DNA from: Escherichia coli
Lineage (GTDB): Bacteria; Pseudomonadota; Gammaproteobacteria; Enterobacterales; Enterobacteriaceae
Length of the DNA stretch: 64,000 nucleotides
Reading direction: 5' to 3' (one strand)
Assembly: GCF_003019035.1 (NCBI RefSeq)
Contig: NZ_CP027447.1
Part shown: piece after piece, positions 34,472-51,058 of the stretch
Position numbering within the stretch: the stretch's first letter is position 1
Layout of the letters: each line of letters begins with the position of its first letter
Made by a program: the position numbers and the translations under genes
The notes under the pieces: model-generated
Databases searched by the model: none
What the model saw: the letters and a program-made list of their open reading frames with translations, nothing else
What the model was told of the DNA's origin: nothing

Positions 34472-35524
34472 TCAAAGTTCCGCGTACATGCGACCGGGGT
34501 TAAACACGCCGCAAGGGTCGAGCTGCTGTTTAAGCTGCTGGTGATAGCGGAATAAAGGAGCCGGTAGCGGGGCAAAGCCACCATCTCCGGCACTAAAGCG
34601 GGTCGCATGACCGCCCGCGTTGCGGGCGATGCGATGGATTTGATTGTCATCGGCTGTCGATTTCAGCCAGCGTAGCGCCCCGCCCCAGTCGATCAGTTGC
34701 TCGCCGGGTAAATCTATCATCGGCGCATCGCTGGGTAAGGAAATGCGCCATAAGGTACCTGGTAACGAGAAGAACGGCAGTTGTTGTTCACGCAATTGCT
34801 GCCAGAACTGACCCGCAACCTCTTCGCCCCCCAGCAGTTCACGCGCTGCTTTTACCGATCCTTCGCCGCCCTCAAGGCGGATCCACAACGCATTGTCGAA
34901 GTAACATAAGCCACTAATGGGTAATGGCTGGAGTTGCCACTGGGCGATTTCATTCATGGCTTCTTGCAGGCTGATTTCCCGACGCAGGCTCAGGGAGGCG
35001 CGCGGTCGCGGTAACACTTTCATCGAGATTTCAGTGAGCACGCCAAGACAACCGTAGCTTCCGGCCATTAACCGTGAGAGATCGTATCCGGCAACGTTTT
35101 TCATCACTTCACCACCAAAACGCAGATGTTTTCCAGTGCCGGTAATGATGCGCGTGCCGAGGACAAAATCGCGGACCGAACCGCTCCACGGGCGACGCGG
35201 CCCCGCCAGCCCGCAGGCGACCATCCCGCCCCAGGTGGCTTCTTCACCATAATGTGGCGGCTCGCAGGGGAGCATTTGCCCGGCGCTCTCCAGCGCCGCT
35301 TCAATCGCCACCAGCGGCGTTCCGGCACGAGCGGTTATCACCAGCTCGGTCGGGTCGTAATTAACAATGCCGCGATGACAACGCACATCCAGCGTTTGCC
35401 CGGTGACAGGACGACCTAAAAAGGCTTTGCTATTGCTGCCCTGAATCACCAGCGGCGTTTTATCGCTAATCGCCTGATTCACCTGCTCCAGCAGCGCCTG
35501 GCTGTAATCACACTCGCGTAGCAT
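34472..35524 (-). CDS. glcE: Glycolate oxidase FAD-binding subunit
   Basis: 350 aa FAD-binding PCMH-type protein. Confidence 0.9.
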   Translation of the reverse strand: MLRECDYSQALLEQVNQAISDKTPLVIQGSNSKAFLGRPVTGQTLDVRCHRGIVNYDPTELVITARAGTPLVAIEAALESAGQMLPCEPPHYGEEATWGGMVACGLAGPRRPWSGSVRDFVLGTRIITGTGKHLRFGGEVMKNVAGYDLSRLMAGSYGCLGVLTEISMKVLPRPRASLSLRREISLQEAMNEIAQWQLQPLPISGLCYFDNALWIRLEGGEGSVKAARELLGGEEVAGQFWQQLREQQLPFFSLPGTLWRISLPSDAPMIDLPGEQLIDWGGALRWLKSTADDNQIHRIARNAGGHATRFSAGDGGFAPLPAPLFRYHQQLKQQLDPCGVFNPGRMYAEL

Positions 35525-38044: not shown

Positions 38045-39187
38045 TCAAATCTGCTTTTCATACAATCGGTAACGCTTGTACGGCTCCGCCCCAATGCGTT
38101 CCAGCATGTTATTCATGCCTGTATTGGTTTCGAGGATCCATGACATCTCCAGCGCATCGATCTTCCGGCGGGCAAACGGATCGCGTAAGGCTTCAATCAA
38201 TAACAACGCAATCACCGGGCCGATGCGGCTGAACTGATACTCGTCCCGCACGCCCATCAGCGGTACTCGCGCAGTTCGCACACCGCTGACTTTTAAACGC
38301 CACAGCAATTTTGCCCAGCCGAAGGGAAAGAGCGATCCGTTCAGATCGGCAATCGCCTCGTTGATGTTTGGCAAGCCGACAATAAACGCGCAGGGTGCAG
38401 AATCAATCTCAGCGATGTAGATCATATCGTCCGGCACCAGATATTTAAGTTGGTCGCCCATGGTCGCGAATTCATGTTCGGTAAACGGCACAAATCCCCA
38501 GTTGTGCTGCCAGCCAGAATTGAAAATCTCACGCAGGATCTGCATCTCTTCGGCAAACCGCTGGCGATTGATGCAGCGAATGGTCACCTTCTTACGCACC
38601 TGATCCATCAGTTTTTTTAGCGCCGGAGAGAAAGTGAGATCGGTTCGCTGCATCCACCACGCCAGTAAATCAATGCCTTTGTGATAACCCAATTGTTCAA
38701 TATGCGCGGCATACCACGGTTTACCGTGCGGCATCATCGCACAGGGTGGTGTATCGAAACCTTCAATCAGTAATCCGCTTTCCTGATTGATATTCAGGCT
38801 GAAAGGCCCGCTGATCTTACTTGCACCTTGTGACTTCAACCACGCTTCCGCTGCGCCAAACAACGCGGCAAAAACCTGCGGATCATCAATGGCGTCAATC
38901 ATGCCGAAATGACCGGTATCTTTGCCGTAACGCTCGCGGTGCAAGGTATCTATTTGCGCGGTAATACGCCCAACTATCTGCCCCGCTTTTTTTGCCACCC
39001 ACGCCTGCCAGATGATATGGTCCGTCCCCGGATTTTTCGCAGACAAATGCTCGTTGCGTTCAATGAATAAAGGGGGTATCCAGTTTGGATCGTCGGGATA
39101 AAGTGATGACGGAAAAGCGATAAATGCCTTAAGGTCATTTTTATTAATTACTTTTTCAATTTTAATCATCAGCAGATCGCATTCCAT
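38045..39187 (-). CDS. yghO: YghO-like GNAT-fold N-acyltransferase (uncharacterised); candidate lipid N-acyltransferase
   Basis: 380-aa intact ORF convergent with glcC and divergent from the FAAL operon; symbol assigned by synteny. Confidence 0.7.
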   Translation of the reverse strand: MECDLLMIKIEKVINKNDLKAFIAFPSSLYPDDPNWIPPLFIERNEHLSAKNPGTDHIIWQAWVAKKAGQIVGRITAQIDTLHRERYGKDTGHFGMIDAIDDPQVFAALFGAAEAWLKSQGASKISGPFSLNINQESGLLIEGFDTPPCAMMPHGKPWYAAHIEQLGYHKGIDLLAWWMQRTDLTFSPALKKLMDQVRKKVTIRCINRQRFAEEMQILREIFNSGWQHNWGFVPFTEHEFATMGDQLKYLVPDDMIYIAEIDSAPCAFIVGLPNINEAIADLNGSLFPFGWAKLLWRLKVSGVRTARVPLMGVRDEYQFSRIGPVIALLLIEALRDPFARRKIDALEMSWILETNTGMNNMLERIGAEPYKRYRLYEKQI

Positions 39188-39557: not shown

Positions 39558-41282
39558 ATGTCTAATAAAATCTTTACGCATTCCCTACCTATGCGCTATG
39601 CCGATTTTCCAACGCTGGTTGATGCTTTGGACTATGCCGCTCTGAGTAGCGCTGGAATGAATTTTTATGACAGACGTTGCCAACTTGAAGATCAACTGGA
39701 ATATCAGACGTTAAAAGCGCGTGCCGAAGCTGGTGCGAAGCGGTTGTTATCGCTGAACCTGAAAAAAGGCGATCGCGTGGCACTGATTGCCGAAACCAGT
39801 AGCGGGTTCGTAGAGGCTTTTTTTGCCTGCCAGTATGCCGGCTTAGTCGCCGTCCCGTTGGCGATTCCCATGGGCGTCGGTCAGCGGGATTCCTGGAGCG
39901 CCAAGCTGCAGGGTTTACTGGCAAGTTGCCAGCCCGCAGCCATTATCACTGGTGATGAGTGGTTGCCACTGGTCAATGCCGCGACGCATAACAACAACCC
40001 CGAATTACATGTTTTAAGCCACGCCTGGTTTAAGGCATTACCGGAAGCCGATGTTGCGCTCCAGCGTCCAGTTCCGAACGATATCGCCTACCTCCAGTAC
40101 ACCTCCGGCAGCACCCGTTTTCCCCGTGGCGTCATTATCACCCATCGCGAAGTGATGGCTAATCTACGTGCTATAAGCCACGATGGCATAAAATTACGCC
40201 CTGGCGACCGCTGCGTCTCCTGGCTGCCTTTCTACCATGATATGGGACTGGTCGGCTTTCTCCTGACCCCCGTCGCCACGCAGCTTTCAGTAGATTATTT
40301 GCGCACTCAGGATTTTGCCATGCGTCCTCTGCAATGGCTTAAATTGATCAGTAAAAATCGCGGCACCGTTTCCGTTGCGCCGCCGTTTGGCTATGAATTG
40401 TGCCAGCGCCGCGTGAATGAAAAAGATCTCGCTGAACTGGATCTTTCCTGCTGGCGCGTCGCTGGTATTGGTGCAGAACCCATCTCCGCAGAACAACTCC
40501 ATCAATTCGCTGAATGTTTCCGTCAGGTCAACTTTGACGATAAAACTTTCATGCCGTGCTACGGACTGGCAGAAAATGCGCTGGCTGTCAGCTTCTCTGA
40601 TGAAGCTTCCGGGGTTGTGGTTAACGAAGTGGATCGCGACATCCTCGAATATCAGGGCAAAGCCGTCGCGCCGGATGCTGAAACACGCGCCGTATCGACT
40701 TTCGTCAACTGCGGTAAAGCGTTGCCGGAACATGGCATTGAAATCCGCAATGAAGCAGGTATACCTGTCGCGGAACGTGTGGTAGGCCATATTTGCATCT
40801 CCGGCCCTAGCCTGATGAGCGGTTACTTTGGCGACCAGATTTCACAAGACGAGATTGCCGCGACGGGCTGGTTAGACACCGGCGACCTCGGTTATCTGCT
40901 GGACGGTTATCTGTATGTCACCGGACGCATTAAAGATCTGATTATTATTCGTGGCCGTAATATCTGGCCGCAGGATATTGAATATATTGCGGAACAGGAA
41001 CCGGAAATTCATTCTGGCGATGCGATTGCTTTTGTTACCGCCCAGGAAAAAATCATTTTGCAGATCCAGTGTCGGATCAGCGATGAAGAACGTCGCGGGC
41101 AGCTTATCCACGCGCTGGCAGCACGGATCCAAAGCGAATTTGGTGTGACCGCGGCTATCGATCTGTTGCCGCCCCACAGTATTCCCCGAACGTCCTCCGG
41201 CAAGCCTGCCCGTGCGGAAGCGAAAAAACGTTATCAGAAGGCTTATGCTGCAAGCCTTCATGTGCAGGAATCCCTGGCATGA
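39558..41282 (+). CDS. Fatty acyl-AMP ligase / acyl-CoA (acyl-ACP) synthetase family protein
   Basis: AMP-binding motifs YTSGSTRFPRGV and GYGLAENA-like YGLAENALAV; start uncertain (TTG 39531, ATG 39558 or ATG 39591). Confidence 0.8.
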   Translation: MSNKIFTHSLPMRYADFPTLVDALDYAALSSAGMNFYDRRCQLEDQLEYQTLKARAEAGAKRLLSLNLKKGDRVALIAETSSGFVEAFFACQYAGLVAVPLAIPMGVGQRDSWSAKLQGLLASCQPAAIITGDEWLPLVNAATHNNNPELHVLSHAWFKALPEADVALQRPVPNDIAYLQYTSGSTRFPRGVIITHREVMANLRAISHDGIKLRPGDRCVSWLPFYHDMGLVGFLLTPVATQLSVDYLRTQDFAMRPLQWLKLISKNRGTVSVAPPFGYELCQRRVNEKDLAELDLSCWRVAGIGAEPISAEQLHQFAECFRQVNFDDKTFMPCYGLAENALAVSFSDEASGVVVNEVDRDILEYQGKAVAPDAETRAVSTFVNCGKALPEHGIEIRNEAGIPVAERVVGHICISGPSLMSGYFGDQISQDEIAATGWLDTGDLGYLLDGYLYVTGRIKDLIIIRGRNIWPQDIEYIAEQEPEIHSGDAIAFVTAQEKIILQIQCRISDEERRGQLIHALAARIQSEFGVTAAIDLLPPHSIPRTSSGKPARAEAKKRYQKAYAASLHVQESLA

Positions 41283-42193
41283 ATCAAACTGTCGCGGTGA
41301 CGGGCGCTACCGGGTTTATCGGTAAATATATTATCGATAACCTGCTCGCCCGCGGCTTTCACGTTCGCGCATTGACGCGTACTGCCCGTGCTCACGTCAA
41401 TGACAATCTCATCTGGGTGCGCGGTTCTCTGGAAGATACTCATTCACTTAGCGAACTGGTTGCCGGAGCCAGCGTGGTGGTCCATTGCGCCGGGCAAGTG
41501 CGCGGGCACAAAGAAGAGATTTTTACCCGCTGTAACGTTGACGGCAGCCTGCGACTGATGCAAGCGGCAAAAGAGAGCGGCTTTTGCCAACGTTTTCTGT
41601 TTATCTCTTCGCTGGCGGCGCGCCATCCCGAACTCTCCTGGTACGCAAATTCCAAACACGTCGCCGAACAACGGCTGACTGCAATGGCTGATGAAATTAC
41701 GCTGGGCGTTTTTCGCCCGACAGCCGTGTATGGTCCCGGCGATAAAGAGTTAAAACCGCTGTTTGACTGGATGCTGCGCGGCCTGCTGCCACGACTTGGT
41801 GCGCCAGATACACAACTCTCTTTCCTGCACGTCACCGATTTTGCGCAAGCAGTGGGTCAGTGGTTAAGCGCCGAAACTGTACAGACGCAAACCTATGAAT
41901 TATGCGATGGCGTCGCTGGCGGCTATGACTGGCAACGCGTACGACAGCTTGCCGCCGAAGCCCGTTGTGGTTCTGTGCAGATGGTTGGCATTCCTCTGCC
42001 GGTACTCACCTGCCTTGCGGATATCAGTACTGCGTTGAGTCGCCTGGCAGGTAAAGAACCTATGCTGACCCGCTCGAAAATTCGTGAATTAACCCACGCC
42101 GACTGGTCGGCAAATAATAACCGTATTTCTGAAGATATTAATTGGTTTCCCGGGATTAGCCTGGAACACGCATTACGCAACGGGCTATTTTGA
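41279..42193 (+). CDS. NAD(P)-dependent epimerase/dehydratase-family SDR (candidate keto-reductase)
   Basis: VTGATGFIGKYI Rossmann motif, YANSK catalytic YxxxK; ATGA start/stop overlap with upstream gene. Confidence 0.85.
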   Translation: MNQTVAVTGATGFIGKYIIDNLLARGFHVRALTRTARAHVNDNLIWVRGSLEDTHSLSELVAGASVVVHCAGQVRGHKEEIFTRCNVDGSLRLMQAAKESGFCQRFLFISSLAARHPELSWYANSKHVAEQRLTAMADEITLGVFRPTAVYGPGDKELKPLFDWMLRGLLPRLGAPDTQLSFLHVTDFAQAVGQWLSAETVQTQTYELCDGVAGGYDWQRVRQLAAEARCGSVQMVGIPLPVLTCLADISTALSRLAGKEPMLTRSKIRELTHADWSANNNRISEDINWFPGISLEHALRNGLF

Positions 42194-42224
42194 TTGTCTT
42201 GTTTAAAGGTGTGTTAACGTTTCT

Positions 42225-42473
42225 ATGGTAAATCGTGAAATAGTAATGGATTACATCCTTTCCTGTTTACAGGATTTGGTCGAAAACGGTGTGGAAATTA
42301 AGCCCAACAGCGATCTCGTCAACGATCTTGGCCTGGAGTCGATCAAAGTGATGGATCTCTTAATGATGCTGGAAGACAGATTCGATATTTCCATTCCTAT
42401 TAATATTCTGCTGGATGTCAAAACCCCTGTGCAATTAATGGAAACTCTACTTCCATGGCTGGAGAATAAATAA
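42225..42473 (+). CDS. Acyl carrier protein
   Basis: 82 aa; phosphopantetheine attachment motif DLGLESI; acidic helical protein. Confidence 0.85.
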   Translation: MVNREIVMDYILSCLQDLVENGVEIKPNSDLVNDLGLESIKVMDLLMMLEDRFDISIPINILLDVKTPVQLMETLLPWLENK

Positions 42474-43645
42474 TGGGGCTATACGATAAATATGCGCGCC
42501 TTGCTGGCGAGCGACTGCAATTTAGTGACAACGGGTTAACGCCGTTTGGTACCTGTATTGATGAAGTGTATTCCGCCACCGAAGGTCGGATCGGCAATAA
42601 AAAAGTGATTCTGGCCGGGACCAATAATTATCTCGGTTTAACCTTTAATCATGATGCCATCGCCGAAGGTCAGGCAGCGTTAGCGGCCCAAGGCACCGGC
42701 ACCACCGGTTCTCGTATGGCTAATGGCAGTTATGCGCCGCATCTGGCGTTAGAGAAAGAGATTGCCGAGTTTTTCAATCGCCCTACCGCTATCGTTTTTT
42801 CAACCGGTTATACCGCTAATTTAGGCGTCATCAGCGCACTTGCCGACCATAACGCCGTGGTGTTACTGGATGCCGACAGCCACGCCAGTATTTATGACGC
42901 CTGTTCTCTCGGTGGCGCGGAAATTATTCGTTTCCGCCATAACGATGCTAAAGATCTGGAACGGCGCATGGTTCGCCTCGGTGAACGGGCGAAAGAGGCG
43001 ATTATCATCGTTGAGGGCATCTACAGCATGCTCGGTGACGTTGCGCCGTTAGCGGAAATTGTTGATATCAAACGTCGTCTCGGTGGTTATTTGATTGTCG
43101 ATGAAGCGCATTCGTTTGGCGTGTTAGGCGCAACGGGGCGCGGACTGGCTGAAGCCGTTGGCGTTGAAGATGATGTGGATATTATCGTTGGTACTTTCAG
43201 TAAAAGTCTGGCCTCGATTGGCGGTTTTGCTGTCGGTTCGGAAGCGATGGAAGTGTTGCGCTACGGCAGCCGCCCGTATATTTTTACCGCCTCTCCTTCT
43301 CCGTCCTGCATTGCGACCGTGCGCTCGTCGTTAAGAACCATTGCCTCACAACCAGAGCTGCGGCAAAAGCTGATGGATAACGCCAACCATCTGTATGACG
43401 GTCTGCAAAAACTGGGTTATGAGTTAAGTTCACATATTAGCCCGGTAGTGCCGGTAATAATCGGTTCGAAAGAGGACGGTTTACGCATCTGGCGCGAGCT
43501 TATTTCGCTGGGCGTTTATGTGAATCTTATCCTGCCACCTGCCGCGCCTGCAGGCATCACTCTGCTGCGCTGTAGCGTAAACGCTGCCCACAGTCATGAG
43601 CAAATCGATGCCATCATTCAGGCATTTGCTACTCTGAAGCAGTAA
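42473..43645 (+). CDS. Alpha-oxoamine synthase (PLP-dependent; serine palmitoyltransferase / KBL / BioF family)
   Basis: 390 aa; GTNNYLGL, DEAHSFGVLG, GTFSKSLASIGG (PLP lysine); TAATG overlap with ACP gene. Confidence 0.85.
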   Translation: MGLYDKYARLAGERLQFSDNGLTPFGTCIDEVYSATEGRIGNKKVILAGTNNYLGLTFNHDAIAEGQAALAAQGTGTTGSRMANGSYAPHLALEKEIAEFFNRPTAIVFSTGYTANLGVISALADHNAVVLLDADSHASIYDACSLGGAEIIRFRHNDAKDLERRMVRLGERAKEAIIIVEGIYSMLGDVAPLAEIVDIKRRLGGYLIVDEAHSFGVLGATGRGLAEAVGVEDDVDIIVGTFSKSLASIGGFAVGSEAMEVLRYGSRPYIFTASPSPSCIATVRSSLRTIASQPELRQKLMDNANHLYDGLQKLGYELSSHISPVVPVIIGSKEDGLRIWRELISLGVYVNLILPPAAPAGITLLRCSVNAAHSHEQIDAIIQAFATLKQ

Positions 43646-43651
43646 TGTGAG

Positions 43652-43684
43652 CCCGCCGTGGTGTTGCGCCACGGCGGGTTTAAT
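43652..43684 (+). terminator. Rho-independent terminator of the FAAL-SDR-ACP-AOS operon at the convergent junction
   Basis: CCCGCCGTGG-TGTTGCG-CCACGGCGGG followed by TTTAAT; coordinates approximate. Confidence 0.55.
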
Positions 43685-44759
43685 GTTGTCTGTCATACCA
43701 ATACACCAGGCTCAACGCCATCAGGACAAACGCTACCGGTAAACCGAGCGCGGTAACAGGTGCACTCAACGCAAATAGCAACCCCAGATTGACCATGATT
43801 TGATAGCTGATCCAGGTGAGTAAGCCAACGATGACGCCTACAGCGAGACGGCTACCCATCCCTGGCGAGCGCGGGGCGCTAAAGGTGAACGGCACAGCCA
43901 GCAAAATCATCGCCAGGGTCAGGATCGGTTGCCCCAGTTTTTCCCACAGTGCAAGGCGGTATTCGCTGCTGGGTTGTCCGGTTTCCTGCAAATAATGGAT
44001 GTAATGATTAAGCTGACGGACAGAAAAAGTATTCCCCGGCATCGATAACTCTTCAAGATCCATACTGGTGAAGGCCGATTGCCAGGCAAGATTATCTGAT
44101 GTTTCCAGCGTTTCTTTGCCATTCAACCATTTTTTATGATTCACACCATGCAGGATCCACGTTTTGTCGTCTTCAATGGAGGCACTGCGTGCAAAAATGT
44201 AGGATTCGAGCGAGAGATCGTCGCGATAATGAAATATCTCCACGCCCACAGGCTGGCCCTGCTCGTTCAGCGATTTCACCGTCACAAATTCATTACCGCG
44301 CCTGGCCCAAAGCATATTGCCGGTAATGTCATCGTCCTCCCCCAACGCGGTGGCAGTCGATTTGATTTGCAGCGCCTGTTGCTGCAATGGCGACGCCACC
44401 CACTCATCTATCGCGCCTAACGAAACAGTCCACAATATCCCGGCAACCAGCGCCACCAGTGCAATACGGAAGATAGAAAACCCAGTGCTGCGAATGGCGG
44501 TAAGCTCACTGTTTTTCGATAACTGCCCCAGGCCAACAATCCCTCCCAATAATGCGATAAATGGCGAAAGTTCGACCAGTGTACGCGGTAAGGTCATCAG
44601 CACCACCAGCACCGCCTGAGTCCAGCGATAACCGCCCGGGCTGACATCATCCAGTTCGTTAATCAGGTTGAAGGTGGTAAAAAGCGGCAGCAATAGCCCT
44701 GCGGCGGCGGCAAAACCGAGAAAGAGATGACGGATTAAATAGCGACTGAAAACATTCAT
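43680..44759 (-). CDS. LptG-like permease (YjgP/YjgQ family)
   Basis: Six-TM architecture with large periplasmic domain; start set at MNVFSRYLIRHLF, overlapping the upstream stop (ATGA). Confidence 0.8.
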   Translation of the reverse strand: MNVFSRYLIRHLFLGFAAAAGLLLPLFTTFNLINELDDVSPGGYRWTQAVLVVLMTLPRTLVELSPFIALLGGIVGLGQLSKNSELTAIRSTGFSIFRIALVALVAGILWTVSLGAIDEWVASPLQQQALQIKSTATALGEDDDITGNMLWARRGNEFVTVKSLNEQGQPVGVEIFHYRDDLSLESYIFARSASIEDDKTWILHGVNHKKWLNGKETLETSDNLAWQSAFTSMDLEELSMPGNTFSVRQLNHYIHYLQETGQPSSEYRLALWEKLGQPILTLAMILLAVPFTFSAPRSPGMGSRLAVGVIVGLLTWISYQIMVNLGLLFALSAPVTALGLPVAFVLMALSLVYWYDRQH

Positions 44760-45826
44760 CGGGAAAATTTCTGCAGCAAAGAGAAGTCGCGTGCGACCAG
44801 CATCAGCAGGCCCATTAGCATGAGTCCGGGTACTAACCACAAACCAGGAATGAGGGGAATCGCACCGTTAGCCACCAGCGTACGGCAGACGTCGCCGCCA
44901 TAAAAAATGGCAACAAACAGCAACGTCAGTGGCAATAACGTTGAAAATCGCCCTTGCCGCGGTTTTACCCGACTTAATGAAATGGCCAGCAGCGCCATCA
45001 ACAATGCGGTCAGGCCACGGCTTTGTCGCCATTGCAGTTCGGCATGATCGGCTGGAAAGACGGAGCGCGCCAGCTCCGTGACCGATTTTGCTTTGCGTTT
45101 GACGTTAGGGCTTTGATCCAGCTGATTCAGATGTAATTGCAGATTACGGTAGATCTGTTCGTTGTCGTCACGCCCCTGATGATCGAGAAGATAGGCGGTC
45201 CCGTTATGCAACATAACGGTCGGTTTCTCAGGTGATGGGTCAACCACATCAACCGAACGGGCGCGGAAAATGCGGGTTCGATTGGCAGTAGAAGTATAAA
45301 TCAGCGCGTCAGTCAGGCGATTATTATCCTGATCAACCGTCTGCGAAAGGATCATTCGTCCGTTATCGTTAGTGTTAAATTTCTTTGCCCGCAACTGGCG
45401 AACATCCAGCTCCGACTGCGACTGTTGCTCCAGTTGATAAATCTGCGCATAAGCCCACGGCCGACCATACATCGACAGAAGGGTGACAAAAATACTTAGC
45501 GGTATCGCCAGATAAAGAACGGCTTTGTACAAGCGTCCCGGACTGCCCCCCGCCGCAGAGATAGCGGTAATTTCCGAGTCGGTATACATCTGCCCTAGCG
45601 TCACGCCAACTGACACATACAGACCAACAGGTAACAACATCTCCAGTGCAATCAGCACTTTGTAGAAAACGATATCCAGCACAACATCAAGAGCTAAGGT
45701 CCCATTTGCCGCTTCGGTCAGATAACGCTGTGCGGAGTAGCTGGCGAAAATAAAGATCAGAAAACCGACGATAATCAGCACCAGACGGCGCGTACCACGC
45801 ATGATGTAGTGTTCAACCAGCTTCAT
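44756..45826 (-). CDS. LptF-like permease (YjgP/YjgQ family)
   Basis: 356 aa, same architecture, translationally coupled to the LptG-like gene. Confidence 0.8.
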   Translation of the reverse strand: MKLVEHYIMRGTRRLVLIIVGFLIFIFASYSAQRYLTEAANGTLALDVVLDIVFYKVLIALEMLLPVGLYVSVGVTLGQMYTDSEITAISAAGGSPGRLYKAVLYLAIPLSIFVTLLSMYGRPWAYAQIYQLEQQSQSELDVRQLRAKKFNTNDNGRMILSQTVDQDNNRLTDALIYTSTANRTRIFRARSVDVVDPSPEKPTVMLHNGTAYLLDHQGRDDNEQIYRNLQLHLNQLDQSPNVKRKAKSVTELARSVFPADHAELQWRQSRGLTALLMALLAISLSRVKPRQGRFSTLLPLTLLFVAIFYGGDVCRTLVANGAIPLIPGLWLVPGLMLMGLLMLVARDFSLLQKFSR

Positions 45827-45856: not shown

Positions 45857-46420
45857 TTATTCATTGATCAGTTTCTGCGCCAGCGCAATGACATGATCTA
45901 CCTCTTCCGGCGTCAGGCTGCCGTCCTTTGCCCACTGAATTTGCCCGTCTTTATTCAGCACCAGAATGGTTGAACTCTGCTCCGGCAACCGCCAGGCAAC
46001 GCGTCCCAGTCCATTGCCGTCAATAACGAATTGCGCCCACGGATAGCGGCGTTTATTTTTTTCGATTTTGCCAACGACAAAATAGCCAGTACCGAAGATG
46101 GCATCATCGGTGTTCACAATGGTGGTGGGCTGAAAACGATCCTGCGGAAAGTTTGCCGCTTCAACCGCTTTAATTAACAGTGAGTTCTTTTTCTTCGCCG
46201 ACTTACGCCCGGCGATATACTGAATAATGCGGACTTTTCCCGCCAGCTGTGTGCTGTTCCACTTTTGGTAGTGAATTTCGTCGTCGCTATTCAGAAGCAG
46301 CTCGCCGCCTTCCTGGATATAAACGGGGGTAACCGTTTTGCCAGTGACGAAATTGTGTGCCTGCACACCCTGGGCTAAGAGCATGATAATCAGCGCAATA
46401 ATCAAACGAGATGACATCAT
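45857..46420 (-). CDS. Periplasmic YtfJ-like protein
   Basis: 187 aa with signal peptide MMSSRLIIALIIMLLAQGVQA; family assignment tentative. Confidence 0.6.
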   Translation of the reverse strand: MMSSRLIIALIIMLLAQGVQAHNFVTGKTVTPVYIQEGGELLLNSDDEIHYQKWNSTQLAGKVRIIQYIAGRKSAKKKNSLLIKAVEAANFPQDRFQPTTIVNTDDAIFGTGYFVVGKIEKNKRRYPWAQFVIDGNGLGRVAWRLPEQSSTILVLNKDGQIQWAKDGSLTPEEVDHVIALAQKLINE

Positions 46421-46428
46421 TGCTCCGG

Positions 46429-47253
46429 TTATAGCGGAAAACGCGAAATCAGCAGCTCTAAGCGCTGGCGAATATCGCTATCCAGCGCCACCGGTGCATC
46501 ATACGACTGGCGGTTTTCCATATCATCCGCCACCATGTCGTCGTGTTTATCCCCCATCAGGCCATTAATGGCGGCGAGGAAGCGGGAAATCTGTAACGCC
46601 TCTTTATTTTCAGGATCAAGCGATCTTAAGGTGTCGTAATAAGAAACCTGCTGGCTGATGATTTTTCGCACATCATGAAATTCCCTGCCGGTGAGTCGCG
46701 GTTTGGCAATTATCTCTTTCAGGGTATGCATTTGCTTTTGCCGATAGGCAATAAAACCGCTTACGCTTTCTAACTGGCTATGGCGTAATGAATAGTTCAC
46801 CAACGACCAGACCGGAGAGCTTAAATAAACCCGTAACAGGTTGCCGTAATACGACACAATATTTTTCTTACCGTTACGAAAACCGTCCTGAAAACGCCCC
46901 AAAAAAACGGTCGTTTTGCCGAATAAAAATCCGGCCTGATGCTTCTTTAAATACAGCCGTTGCGCAAAACGCAGGTGCTTGTAGCGCGCTCGCATGTATT
47001 TATACTTTTTGCGCTCATCGTCGGTAAGTATTTTGCCTTTTGCTTGTTTCAGCGTTAAGCGAAGTAACTCTTTGCGATTTACACCATCCAGCCAGAATCT
47101 CAAACATAAGGCATAATTGTCATGAATAATCTCCGGTGAACAGCGCAAAGTGATCGTTGGCGGCAAGCTAACCTGTGTGTCAATAACATCATTATCATCA
47201 ACAGCAATAAATAAACGCTCAATGACCTCAAGTGGAAAGTATTTTCTCATCAT
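46429..47253 (-). CDS. Hypothetical basic protein of unknown function
   Basis: 274-aa ORF in operon context, Lys/Arg-rich, no recognisable motif. Confidence 0.6.
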   Translation of the reverse strand: MMRKYFPLEVIERLFIAVDDNDVIDTQVSLPPTITLRCSPEIIHDNYALCLRFWLDGVNRKELLRLTLKQAKGKILTDDERKKYKYMRARYKHLRFAQRLYLKKHQAGFLFGKTTVFLGRFQDGFRNGKKNIVSYYGNLLRVYLSSPVWSLVNYSLRHSQLESVSGFIAYRQKQMHTLKEIIAKPRLTGREFHDVRKIISQQVSYYDTLRSLDPENKEALQISRFLAAINGLMGDKHDDMVADDMENRQSYDAPVALDSDIRQRLELLISRFPL

Positions 47254-48647: not shown

Positions 48648-49406
48648 TTAAGTTAAACTTCGGCGGTCAGAAACGATGGCAACCAGAGAAACCGCCTTCT
48701 GTGCCTGTTCCAGCACTTCGCTGTAAGGCGCTCTGGAATCAATCTCAAGAATTTTTGTGCCGTTATAGCCAATCGTCGACATGACGCCGATTTTGTCCTG
48801 CAGCTCGGCATAGTCATGGTCAGGCTTGCGGGAGATGGCAGTATCAATATCAATCCCCAAACGAATGATTAATTCAGGACGGTATTGCGCCATTTGTTGG
48901 TATAAACGCCGTTCGCGCTGCGCCAGAAACATGCTGATTTTCCCGGTCGCACGTTCGACGCCGATCCCCGGTCCGTCATAATAAAAGCCCGAAATTTCAG
49001 CCTGCGGGAAGCGATCGCTGACCACCAGAACGCCACTTTGCGCCAGTCGCTGAACCTTGCGTAGATTCGCCATTCTTCGCAGCGAGAAGCAGTACATAAT
49101 CACCGCCGCCCATACCGCCGGAGATTTGGTTTTCATGCTTTGGGTTTTCGAGGATTTGGCCGCCAGTCGCCGTTCGAGCCAGACGCCAACCAACGGCAAT
49201 CGTTTGATTTTGTCGCCGTCTTCGCCCGAGAGCAGCCCCAGATAGCGCCGCTCGGTTTGCCAGTGTTGTTGCAGCGATTTCACGAGGTCGGTGGTCAGTG
49301 TGGATTTACCGGTGCCATCACACCCGACCACCGCAATCAGCCCCGGAATGTAGTTGGGCTGCGGCGCGGTTGTACTATTAACAGTTTGTGTTTGTAGTGC
49401 GTCCAT
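48648..49406 (-). CDS. yghR: P-loop NMP-kinase-fold protein (putative small-molecule or lipid kinase)
   Basis: Walker A GCDGTGKSTL near N-terminus, DRFP motif; paralog of yghS and yghT. Confidence 0.8.
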   Translation of the reverse strand: MDALQTQTVNSTTAPQPNYIPGLIAVVGCDGTGKSTLTTDLVKSLQQHWQTERRYLGLLSGEDGDKIKRLPLVGVWLERRLAAKSSKTQSMKTKSPAVWAAVIMYCFSLRRMANLRKVQRLAQSGVLVVSDRFPQAEISGFYYDGPGIGVERATGKISMFLAQRERRLYQQMAQYRPELIIRLGIDIDTAISRKPDHDYAELQDKIGVMSTIGYNGTKILEIDSRAPYSEVLEQAQKAVSLVAIVSDRRSLT

Positions 49407-49437: not shown

Positions 49438-50151
49438 TCAGGAAAGCGCAGCGTGAATTGCGCGTAGTGACGCTTGCAGAATTTCATCGGCTGGTTGCCG
49501 ACCATCCAGTTCAAGGATCTTTGCGCCATTGAATGTCAGTTGCGGCGTAACGGCGATTTTTTCCTGTAACGCTGCCAGTTGGTGGTCAGGTTTACGCGCA
49601 AACGCGGTTTGTTCATCAATGCCAAGACGAATCAACAATACGGGCAAATAAGACGCCATCCATTGGTACAGCTTCAGCTCGCGCTGCCTTAACATTTTTA
49701 TCCAACCGTTACCGCCCGTGGTTTTTGCCAATTGCGGGCCATCAAAGCGAAAACCCGGCACTTCAACCTGCGGGTAGCGGTCGGTGATGAGCAGATAGCC
49801 TTGCTGGCTTTTACACAACATTTTGCGAAACTTGTACGCCCGCCAGCAGGAAAGCAGATAGATAACCAGCGCAGTAATATTGCCAGGCGGTGTGGAGGGC
49901 TTTTCGTGCACATGTGCCGCTTTACTTCGCAGATAACGCCCAAAAGGTGCGCCAATAACAGGGAGCTGTGAAATCCATTCGCCAATTCGCCCGGACGATT
50001 GCCCGAGATAAATGTGTTCTGTTGGCATTGTTGCTGCCAGTTCATTTACCAGGCTTGCCGTGAGGGTCGATTTACCTGAACCATCACATCCTACAATGGC
50101 AATAACACGCACTGGCGTGGAATTAATTATTGACATATTACGTTGATTCAC
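49438..50151 (-). CDS. yghS: P-loop NMP-kinase-fold protein, paralog of yghR
   Basis: Walker A GCDGSGKSTL, DRYP motif. Confidence 0.8.
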   Translation of the reverse strand: MNQRNMSIINSTPVRVIAIVGCDGSGKSTLTASLVNELAATMPTEHIYLGQSSGRIGEWISQLPVIGAPFGRYLRSKAAHVHEKPSTPPGNITALVIYLLSCWRAYKFRKMLCKSQQGYLLITDRYPQVEVPGFRFDGPQLAKTTGGNGWIKMLRQRELKLYQWMASYLPVLLIRLGIDEQTAFARKPDHQLAALQEKIAVTPQLTFNGAKILELDGRQPADEILQASLRAIHAALS

Positions 50152-50324
50152 GAAAAACCCGGCAGCAAATAATGTATTGAATATTACGTGGTCCGTGCTC
50201 AGAATATCCGTTCAACCTTATTGTGACAATGGTTAATTGTGACATTGACCTGAATTACGCTTTCATAAAAACATATTAACCAAATAAATATTTTTAATGG
50301 ATATTTAAATTAAAGGATATATTC

Positions 50325-51017
50325 ATGCAGTCAATAACACCTCCATTAATTGCCGTTATTGGTAGCGATGGTTCAGGCAAGTCAACGGTGTGTGAACATC
50401 TCATTACCGTTGTCGAAAAATATGGTGCTGCCGAAAGAGTTCATTTAGGAAAACAGGCCGGAAATGTCGGTCGTGCAGTGACAAAATTACCGTTGATGGG
50501 AAAATCCTTACATAAAACAATTGAACGAAATCAGGTGAAAACAGCAAAAAAATTGCCAGGACCAGTTCCGGCGCTGGTAATTACAGCGTTTGTCGCCCGT
50601 CGCTTACTGCGCTTTCGTCATATGCTTGCCTGTCGTCGTCGCGGGTTAATTGTTCTAACCGACCGTTATCCTCAGGACCAAATTCCTGGCGCTTACGATG
50701 GTACAGTGTTCCCACCTAACATTGAAGGTGGTCGTTTTGTCTCATGGCTGGCAAGCTAGGAACGTAAAGCGTTTCACTGGATGGCGAGCCATAAACCGGA
50801 TCTGGTCATCAAACTCAATGTTGACCTTGAAGTTGCCTGCGCGCGTAAACCCGACCATAAACGGGAATCGCTGGCGAGGAAGATTGCCATAACGCCACAG
50901 TTAACCTTTGGCGGTGCACAACTGGTTGATATCGATGCTAATCAGCCACTGGAAAAGGTGCTGATTGATGCAGAAAAAGCGATTACGGATTTTATGACCG
51001 CGCGTGGTTATCACTAG
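50325..51017 (+). pseudogene. yghT: yghT-like P-loop paralog interrupted by an in-frame TAG
   Basis: ORFs 50325-50759 and 50781-51017 are in the same frame, separated only by TAG at 50757-50759; joined they give a 230-codon yghR/yghS paralog ([13 protein letters not shown]). Confidence 0.75.
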
Positions 51018-51027
51018 TCAAAAATGG

Positions 51028-51058
51028 AAATGCCCGATCGCCAGGACCGGGCATTTTC
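51028..51058. terminator. Bidirectional terminator hairpin between yghT and pitB
   Basis: AAATGCCCG...CGGGCATTT stem with T-rich flanks on both strands; coordinates approximate. Confidence 0.5.

Follow-up and report, generated by a model that had tools for sequence, protein, structure and literature searches.

The yghT gene in this stretch of the Escherichia coli chromosome is interrupted by an amber codon that is a real, evolutionarily very recent, single-base loss-of-function mutation, ordinary in kind. The closest yghT among complete genomes, that of strain SCU-301 (NZ_CP051751.1), is one base apart, with C in place of the T at position 50757; it reads CAG (Gln145) and encodes an intact 230-aa product. 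We put a probability of about 0.85 on the whole account, namely that the window carries a genuine and recent yghT null, that its Gln145 amber arose by deamination of 5-methylcytosine at a Dcm site, that the same mutation has recurred in the species, and that the truncated product is inactive.

Within the window (the entire 64,000-nucleotide stretch that was analysed), the yghT reading frame spans 50325-51017 on the plus strand. It comprises 231 codons including the natural stop and one internal TAG, that is, 230 sense positions with the amber at codon 145 among them. The frame starts with an ATG at 50325, is open as far as the TAG at 50757-50759 (...FVSWLAS*), and beyond the amber stays open, in the same frame, up to the natural stop TAG at 51015-51017. 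The list of open reading frames splits the gene into 50325..50759 (144 aa) and 50781..51017 (78 aa), both in one frame, the second beginning at the first ATG past the amber, 21 nt after the stop (Met153). The first-pass annotation had described two same-frame ORFs parted only by this TAG, which together give a 230-codon protein, exactly as the sequence reads. The features of the locus are as follows.

50313..50317, plus strand: Shine-Dalgarno-like AAGGA, 7 nt 5' of the yghT ATG, read from the sequence
50325..50759, plus strand: yghT 5' part, codons 1-144 and the premature amber, with the P-loop (residues 13-21), DRY (113-115) and half of helix 137-154
50756..50760, no strand assigned: mutated Dcm site, CTAGG in the window and CCAGG in intact alleles
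50757..50759, plus strand: premature TAG, Gln145 to amber, from the sequence and the comparison with SCU-301
50760..51017, plus strand: yghT 3' part, codons 146-230 and the natural TAG, undamaged and identical to SCU-301
50781..51017, plus strand: 78-aa ORF from Met153, called as a separate gene by gene callers (e.g. in Logan assemblies)
51028..51056, no strand assigned: terminator-like hairpin with a 12-bp stem, between the convergent yghT and pitB
49438..50151, minus strand: yghS, intact paralog, divergent from yghT, product 35.6% identical to YghT
48648..49406, minus strand: yghR, intact paralog, product 32.2% identical to YghT

The local gene order is a yghQ-like flippase gene, yghR and yghS (all on the minus strand), yghT (plus), pitB (minus), gss (minus) and yghU (plus). 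Synteny places the gene in the yghT orthologous group: it is divergent from yghS and convergent with pitB, and has the same neighbors as in SCU-301. Its nucleotide sequence is 99.9% identical to the annotated SCU-301 yghT, and the 5' part is 100% identical save position 50757. Members of the orthologous group measure 230-244 aa and include an RKPDH motif, whereas the product in the window ends at residue 144. Translation from the yghT start no longer reaches 50760..51017, which encodes E146, M153, P158, A171, RKPDH (174-178), strands b4 and b5, and the C-terminal helix. Since yghT is monocistronic, there is no downstream gene on which the amber could have a polar effect.

We searched 5426 complete E. 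coli genomes with the 693-nt yghT of the window and found matches in 4733 and none in the other 693 (13%); none of the 5426 carried an identical sequence. An annotated, unbroken yghT is present in ~4700 of them. Across the full 64,000 bases, SCU-301 departs from the window at nine positions (seven substitutions and two single-base indels). Complete genomes other than SCU-301 reached at most 98.4% identity over the 22 kb compared, and the top-ranked of these matches (98.3-98.4%) include UPEC 536. The differences between the window and SCU-301 were polarized using TCM3e1 as an outgroup. At 50757, T is the derived state, carried by the window, and C is found in SCU-301, TCM3e1, and EC958. The window is also derived at 27053, a G to A transition in sslE that lies outside any Dcm site, and SCU-301 is derived at 35233, 51549, and 63906. 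Because the outgroup has a different capsule locus, the four differences that fall in this region (639, 4782, 6328, and 8618) were left unpolarized. Because derived states fall on both sides, the window and SCU-301 are sisters with few changes each and, on this comparison, the amber arose after their split. Relative to SCU-301, no secondary decay was seen in yghT 3' of the stop, and no other gene in the window was broken. The recent nonsense mutation proposed in the first-pass annotation is thus borne out by the CAG of SCU-301, at nine differences per 64 kb, and by the outgroup that makes T derived; among the alleles of other strains to which that annotation pointed, the nearest intact one, that of SCU-301, lies a single base away.

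Three of the other differences between the two sisters have features of their own. At 35233, in glcE, the window and the outgroup read CCAGG and SCU-301 reads CCCGG; as this is an A to C change at the W position of the Dcm motif, it is not a deamination product, and the CCCGG of SCU-301 may be either a consensus error at a methylated site or a real transversion. At 4782, the window has an extra G relative to SCU-301, 16 nt inside the 5' end of a glycosyltransferase ORF (2036-4798, minus strand). The predicted protein is 920 aa long with a changed N-terminus, compared with 925 aa in the SCU-301 annotation. At 8618, the window has an extra A relative to SCU-301 in an intergenic run of A.

The base that changed in yghT lies in a Dcm site. 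Intact alleles read aagCCAGGaac at this position, 50757 being the inner (second) cytosine of CCAGG, and SCU-301, EC958, DEC5A, and 493/89 all read gcaagcCAGgaacg there. The site has the features of a Dcm hotspot, namely an ancestral CCWGG, a C to T change at the inner cytosine, recurrence, and the presence of dcm and vsr in the lineage; both of these genes are annotated as intact in the sister genome SCU-301 (2052363-2054232). The ancestral yghT contained three CCWGG sites and, of the six deamination outcomes possible at these, a stop results only at 50757. The same C to T change is one of 82 stop-generating single substitutions possible in yghT. Across the 55 annotated genes of the window, 72 in-frame Dcm sites are able to become amber, and only the one in yghT has changed. 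The window contains 144 CCWGG and 17 CTWGG sites, an excess that fits the species-wide bias of very-short-patch repair.

Our model for the origin of the amber is as follows. Dcm would methylate the inner cytosine of CCAGG at 50757, and hydrolytic deamination of the resulting 5-methylcytosine would give thymine and hence a T:G mismatch. Very-short-patch repair by Vsr normally counteracts such deamination hotspots at Dcm sites (PMC2715241); a mismatch that escaped it would yield CTAGG, an amber in the yghT frame. At a hotspot, the identical amber would be expected to arise repeatedly in unrelated E. coli lineages. Translation would then stop past residue 144, and one of three ancient paralogs with a thymidylate-kinase fold (YghR, YghS, and YghT) would be lost. 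The classical precedent is lacI, in which spontaneous amber hotspots lie at the second C of CCAGG (Coulondre, Miller, Farabaugh, Gilbert 1978; reviewed in PMC12606429). The yghT mutation resembles these hotspots in that the second C of CCAGG became T, turning an in-frame CAG into TAG, and in that the same base is hit recurrently. It differs in its setting: the lacI hotspots were obtained under laboratory selection, whereas yghT is a chromosomal gene mutated in natural populations, and the mechanism is here read from sequence.

Recurrence was assessed using a 63-nt probe centered on the TAG, the region of which is matched by 4606 complete E. coli genomes. Five of these carry the exact 63-mer with TAG, and 4601 do not. 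All five share one yghT allele: they are the O55:H7 strains CB9615, RM12579, DEC5D, and TB182A, together with 2013C-4465, whose record states no serotype. In CB9615, RefSeq lists yghT as a pseudogene ("dTMP kinase, internal stop"), and three other close strains are one base away from this O55:H7 TAG allele. The O55:H7 pseudogene and the window share the codon-145 TAG and identical 63-nt surroundings; yet the two alleles differ at eight other sites in the 693 nt, the nearest of which flank the stop at 36 bp on the 5' side and 38 bp on the 3' side, and the window strain belongs to the SCU-301 lineage. Because the allele backgrounds differ around the stop, we consider the O55:H7 origin independent of that in the window. 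The O55:H7 TAG allele equals the allele of DEC5A (O55:H7) with only the C to T change added, and both DEC5A and 493/89 (O157:H-) carry CAG and are annotated as intact. The amber therefore arose inside O55:H7, and we rejected the notion that TAG is ancestral and common to O157:H7 or to the whole of O55:H7. Orthologs ending at the same position had been put forward in the first-pass annotation as grounds against a nonsense mutation; such genes do exist, in O55:H7 and elsewhere, but they are independent derived pseudogenes, and the orthologs in other genera are full length.

We also looked up the 144-aa truncation, by exact match, as it would read on ten other allele backgrounds; two of these, an ST131 type and a TCM3e1 type, were recovered. 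Sequences L015 and L016 equal the EC958 (ST131) allele with TAG, and L019 and L020 represent two further, more divergent alleles with TAG. The identical TAG is thus found on five nucleotide backgrounds (window type, ST131 type, O55:H7, L019, and L020), which are pairwise 2-22 of 693 sites apart, and three of the five equal a known intact allele (SCU-301, EC958, or DEC5A) plus only this C to T. The simplest reading of TAG on several backgrounds is independent mutation at a hotspot. The argument is a statistical one: a single nonsense site, 1 in 82, was struck on several backgrounds. Transfer of short DNA patches could in principle lie behind some of the recurrences; judging from the flanking differences, a tract shared by the window type and O55:H7 would be shorter than 74 bp, and one shared by the window type and the ST131 type could reach ~320 bp. 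Codon 145 of TCM3e1 reads CAA, a synonymous change equivalent to window position 50759; deamination of the other strand's 5-methylcytosine at this Dcm site would give just this product. Both methylated positions of the codon-145 Dcm site are thus polymorphic in the species. The first-pass annotation had mentioned neither the Dcm site nor the recurrence.

An ordinary substitution, whether by replication error or by deamination of unmethylated cytosine, could have fallen on the Dcm position by coincidence. Among spontaneous changes, G:C to A:T transitions are the most frequent, and the sole other polarized window-derived SNP, at 27053, is a transition with no Dcm site. Coincidence would, however, have to account for the same base being struck on five allele backgrounds despite 82 possible nonsense substitutions, as well as for the opposite-strand product CAA that also segregates at this site, and dcm and vsr are intact in SCU-301. 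We thus regard a non-hotspot origin as unlikely, and infer that 5-methylcytosine deamination, rather than another source of C to T, caused the change at 50757.

In the short term, yghT is clearly expendable. IS1 insertions interrupt it in three complete genomes, other truncated YghT products of 154, 171, and 182 aa occur in E. coli and Shigella, and K-12 survives knockout of yghT, with no phenotype seen in a silkworm screen (PMC9278758). Homologs of YghT are found across Enterobacterales (in E. albertii, Citrobacter, Hafnia, Shimwellia, Sodalis, Erwinia, Serratia, Rahnella, Mangrovibacter, and others), and the orthologs in other genera are all full length, at 230-244 aa, and 64-88% identical across the order. 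One could argue that loss is adaptive and that selection, beyond mutational bias, explains the repeated appearance and clonal persistence of inactivated alleles, given the many routes of inactivation (the amber on five backgrounds, IS1, the other truncations, and the 13% of genomes that gave no match). We consider this improbable: the mutational hotspot alone accounts for the recurrence, the conservation of full-length orthologs speaks for long-term purifying selection, and the knockout was without phenotype in the sole screen that we found. Because TAG lineages are rare (5/4606 complete genomes) and shallow, and other genera keep the gene at full length, the data suggest that loss of yghT is neutral to mildly deleterious rather than favored.

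The first-pass annotation had also recognized a family of three paralogs with a shared Walker A/DRYP layout, and our alignment agrees. The Walker A motif of YghT is GSDGSGKST (residues 13-21) and its second motif TDRYPQ (residues 112-117); the equivalents are GCDGSGKST and TDRYPQ in YghS, and GCDGTGKST and SDRFPQ in YghR. Each of the three E. coli paralogs is 68-73% identical to its own Serratia ortholog, so the triplication predates the divergence of the genera. That all three copies have been kept since this ancient event argues against simple redundancy and, judging from their sequences, YghR and YghS are probably not interchangeable with YghT. The earlier suggestion that the two intact copies make yghT dispensable is accordingly unsupported, though unrefuted: the paralogs are 32-36% identical to YghT and the triplication is old.

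Vsr-biased repair has a further reported effect, in that its action on T:G replication mismatches stimulates CTAGG-to-CCAGG changes (PMC2715241). Codon 145 might on this basis act as a reversible Dcm/Vsr switch, turned off by deamination and back on by Vsr-biased repair. We view such a switch as very unlikely. Were it real, lineages would toggle a sphingolipid-associated kinase under selection, and the codon would be a contingency-like locus rather than a case of simple decay.

To return to the null allele favored here, we examined what the truncation removes. We aligned 29 YghT homologs with YghS and YghR of E. coli and Serratia (33 sequences). Across the alignment, G13-T21 and D113/R114 were invariant and, past residue 145, so were E146, M153, P158, L160, L164, A171, R174, K175, P176, D177, H178, L183, K186, and A219. 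We also examined an AlphaFold2 model of the intact ancestral YghT (mean pLDDT 80.7, pTM 0.77). The first half of the model consists of b1, the P-loop, a1, b2, a poorly predicted segment at 44-76, and a long helix at 80-105. The second half begins with b3, followed by DRY, a helix at 137-154, b4 (160-165), helices at 168-174 and 180-192, b5 (199-204), and the C-terminal helix. In this model, the amber falls inside helix 137-154, and b4, b5, RKPDH, and the C-terminal helix are lost. Because the truncation takes two of the five core beta-strands along with RKPDH, which is invariant across orthologs and paralogs, we interpret it as loss of function; truncated YghT is expected to be inactive and is probably unstable.

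Could yghT nevertheless still function, either through readthrough or suppression of the UAG or as a split protein of 144 and 78 aa? The frame downstream of the stop is undamaged, with an ATG 21 nt past it, and low-level near-cognate readthrough of UAG, which typically inserts Gln, could leave a trace of wild-type YghT. An undamaged downstream frame is, however, also expected of a very recent mutation. Every other-genus ortholog examined, like >99.8% of the probe-matching complete genomes, has sense at codon 145 (CAG or CAA); the in-frame stop is thus not conserved among orthologs, as it would be under programmed recoding. No tRNA or suppressor gene is present within the 64-kb window. The break lies inside a helix and, in the model, splits the core sheet. 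Finally, no Shine-Dalgarno sequence precedes Met153 at a functional spacing (the sole AGGA lies 19 nt upstream), and the 78-aa ORF is probably not expressed. Taken with the structural damage, these observations make retained function extremely unlikely.

The stop itself is reproducible. Logan assemblies of three sequencing runs (SRR28455285, SRR28455157, and SRR28454730) match the window without a single difference over 12,435, 9,484, and 7,584 bases, respectively, TAG included. In a collection of 15 billion proteins, the exact 144-aa product occurs on ~106 contigs and the exact 78-aa product on ~109, counts that are inflated and show reproducibility rather than the number of independent isolates; many of the runs with the window allele have neighboring SRR numbers and may sample one strain. 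The longest contig for both products is one and the same 5,168,620-bp chromosome. Reading these counts at face value was partly rejected, as some short metagenomic contigs end at that very base with C. Four such contigs from metagenomic or run assemblies (L017, L018, L021, and L022) carry C and end one or two bases into codon 145, and their ends may be assembly-graph breaks caused by mixed C/T or G/A variants.

Nanopore-only consensus calling makes systematic errors at Dcm sites, 50757 sits in a Dcm motif, and so does another difference between the window and SCU-301, at 35233 (where SCU-301 is the derived one); but a sequencing or assembly artefact masking a true CAG can be virtually discounted, because the TAG stands on an identical haplotype of 7.6-12.4 kb in three independent SRA-run assemblies, the same TAG in O55:H7 genomes of several independent deposits rules out a strain-specific artefact, and the window has no other broken gene relative to SCU-301. 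We thus rejected sequencing error, which the first-pass annotation had kept as an alternative, on the strength of the three run assemblies.

As for the function that was lost, the predicted structure of YghT has the fold of thymidylate kinases, yet the protein cannot be called a dTMP kinase on the evidence collected here. A Foldseek search of the PDB with the AlphaFold2 model returned thymidylate kinases for all of the top 45 matches (E ~5e-8, TM 0.55-0.60, ~21% identity). A direct sequence search of the PDB with YghT gave insignificant matches only (best E = 0.09), and the fold was therefore taken from the predicted model. Scores against family models were far below threshold: 25.5 bits against TIGR00041 (cut-off 83.25), 25.5 bits against NF005923 (cut-off 193), and 21.1 bits against PF02223 (cut-off 27). 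With Tmk, YghT shares the P-loop NMP-kinase fold and the Walker A and DR(Y) motifs; it differs in the extra low-confidence segment at 44-76, in the family-specific invariant RKPDH, and in these sub-threshold scores. The RefSeq product name of YghT and of YghS is "dTMP kinase", yet either protein scores ~25 bits against cut-offs of 83 and 193; by this measure, the name is probably over-specific for the two proteins, being without backing from the family models. Our search of the literature on yghT, yghS, yghR, and yghQ found no functional study and no YghT biochemistry; mentions of the four genes were limited to a knockout-screen table and a FlhDC SELEX table.

The genomic neighborhood offers a lead to this function. 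In the window, yghQRST adjoin a sphingolipid cluster (aasR-spt, 39558-43645), the genes of which, with those that connect it to yghQRST, are listed below.

38045-39187, minus strand: yghO, dihydroceramide gene
39558-41282, plus strand: aasR, dihydroceramide gene
41279-42193, plus strand: epi, dihydroceramide gene
42225-42473, plus strand: acpR, dihydroceramide gene
42473-43645, plus strand: spt, dihydroceramide gene
43680-44759, minus strand: lptG-like, LptG paralog
44756-45826, minus strand: lptF-like, LptF paralog
45857-46420, minus strand: ytfJ-like, YtfJ-family protein
46429-47253, minus strand: hypothetical protein of 274 aa
47250-48602, minus strand: yghQ, MOP flippase

The genes aasR, epi, acpR, and spt, together with yghO, are the E. 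coli dihydroceramide genes characterized in BL21 (Padilla-Gomez et al. 2022, PMC9386255); yghR, yghS, and yghT are not named among the five ceramide genes described there. The yghT ortholog of Serratia proteamaculans is flanked by yghS and spt, and the gene set is kept together there. A Pseudomonas graminis record places a yghT ortholog beside an AMP-ligase gene and a truncated epimerase gene, and a YghT homolog is also found in Martelella alba. The arrangement suggests that the cluster, the LptF and LptG paralogs, YtfJ, the flippase, and YghR/S/T form one unit of synthesis, modification, and export. YghT would then act in a sphingolipid-related pathway, and, as a best guess from gene neighborhood, the three paralogs YghR, YghS, and YghT would be kinases whose substrate is a sphingolipid-related intermediate or head group. 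The resemblance to the sphingolipid cluster of E. coli and Rhodobacteria consists in the genomic adjacency to yghQRST, whereas the link of YghR/S/T to it is one of gene neighborhood only. We also asked whether YghT is homologous to CpgB, the ceramide kinase of Caulobacter, and rejected this, as CpgB carries a GGDG motif within an LCB5/DAG-kinase domain rather than a P-loop (PMC10331486), and the two folds differ.

In itself, the window allele adds another strain-specific pseudogene, of a dispensable gene, and carries little weight for biology at large. At the same time, it shows cleanly how the classical amber hotspot at Dcm sites recurs in natural E. coli lineages. The recurrent TAG at codon 145 could create homoplasy in SNP phylogenies and so mimic shared ancestry or selection. 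Neither the recurrence at a hotspot nor the link to the sphingolipid cluster is surprising to a specialist, but the latter, in which yghR, yghS, and yghT are conserved alongside the enterobacterial cluster, gives a useful lead. Clones that are naturally yghT-null but keep the cluster intact, such as the window strain beside SCU-301, provide ready material on the role of YghT.

Two minor observations concern the yghT region in other strains. The adjacent pitB is annotated as frameshifted in 493/89, indicating that neighbors in the yghT region also decay in some lineages. In addition, E. coli contains reciprocal YghS/YghT chimeras (P0156/P0155 and P0078), both joined at TDRYPQ, which are the expected outcome of an inversion through recombination between the two divergent paralogs.
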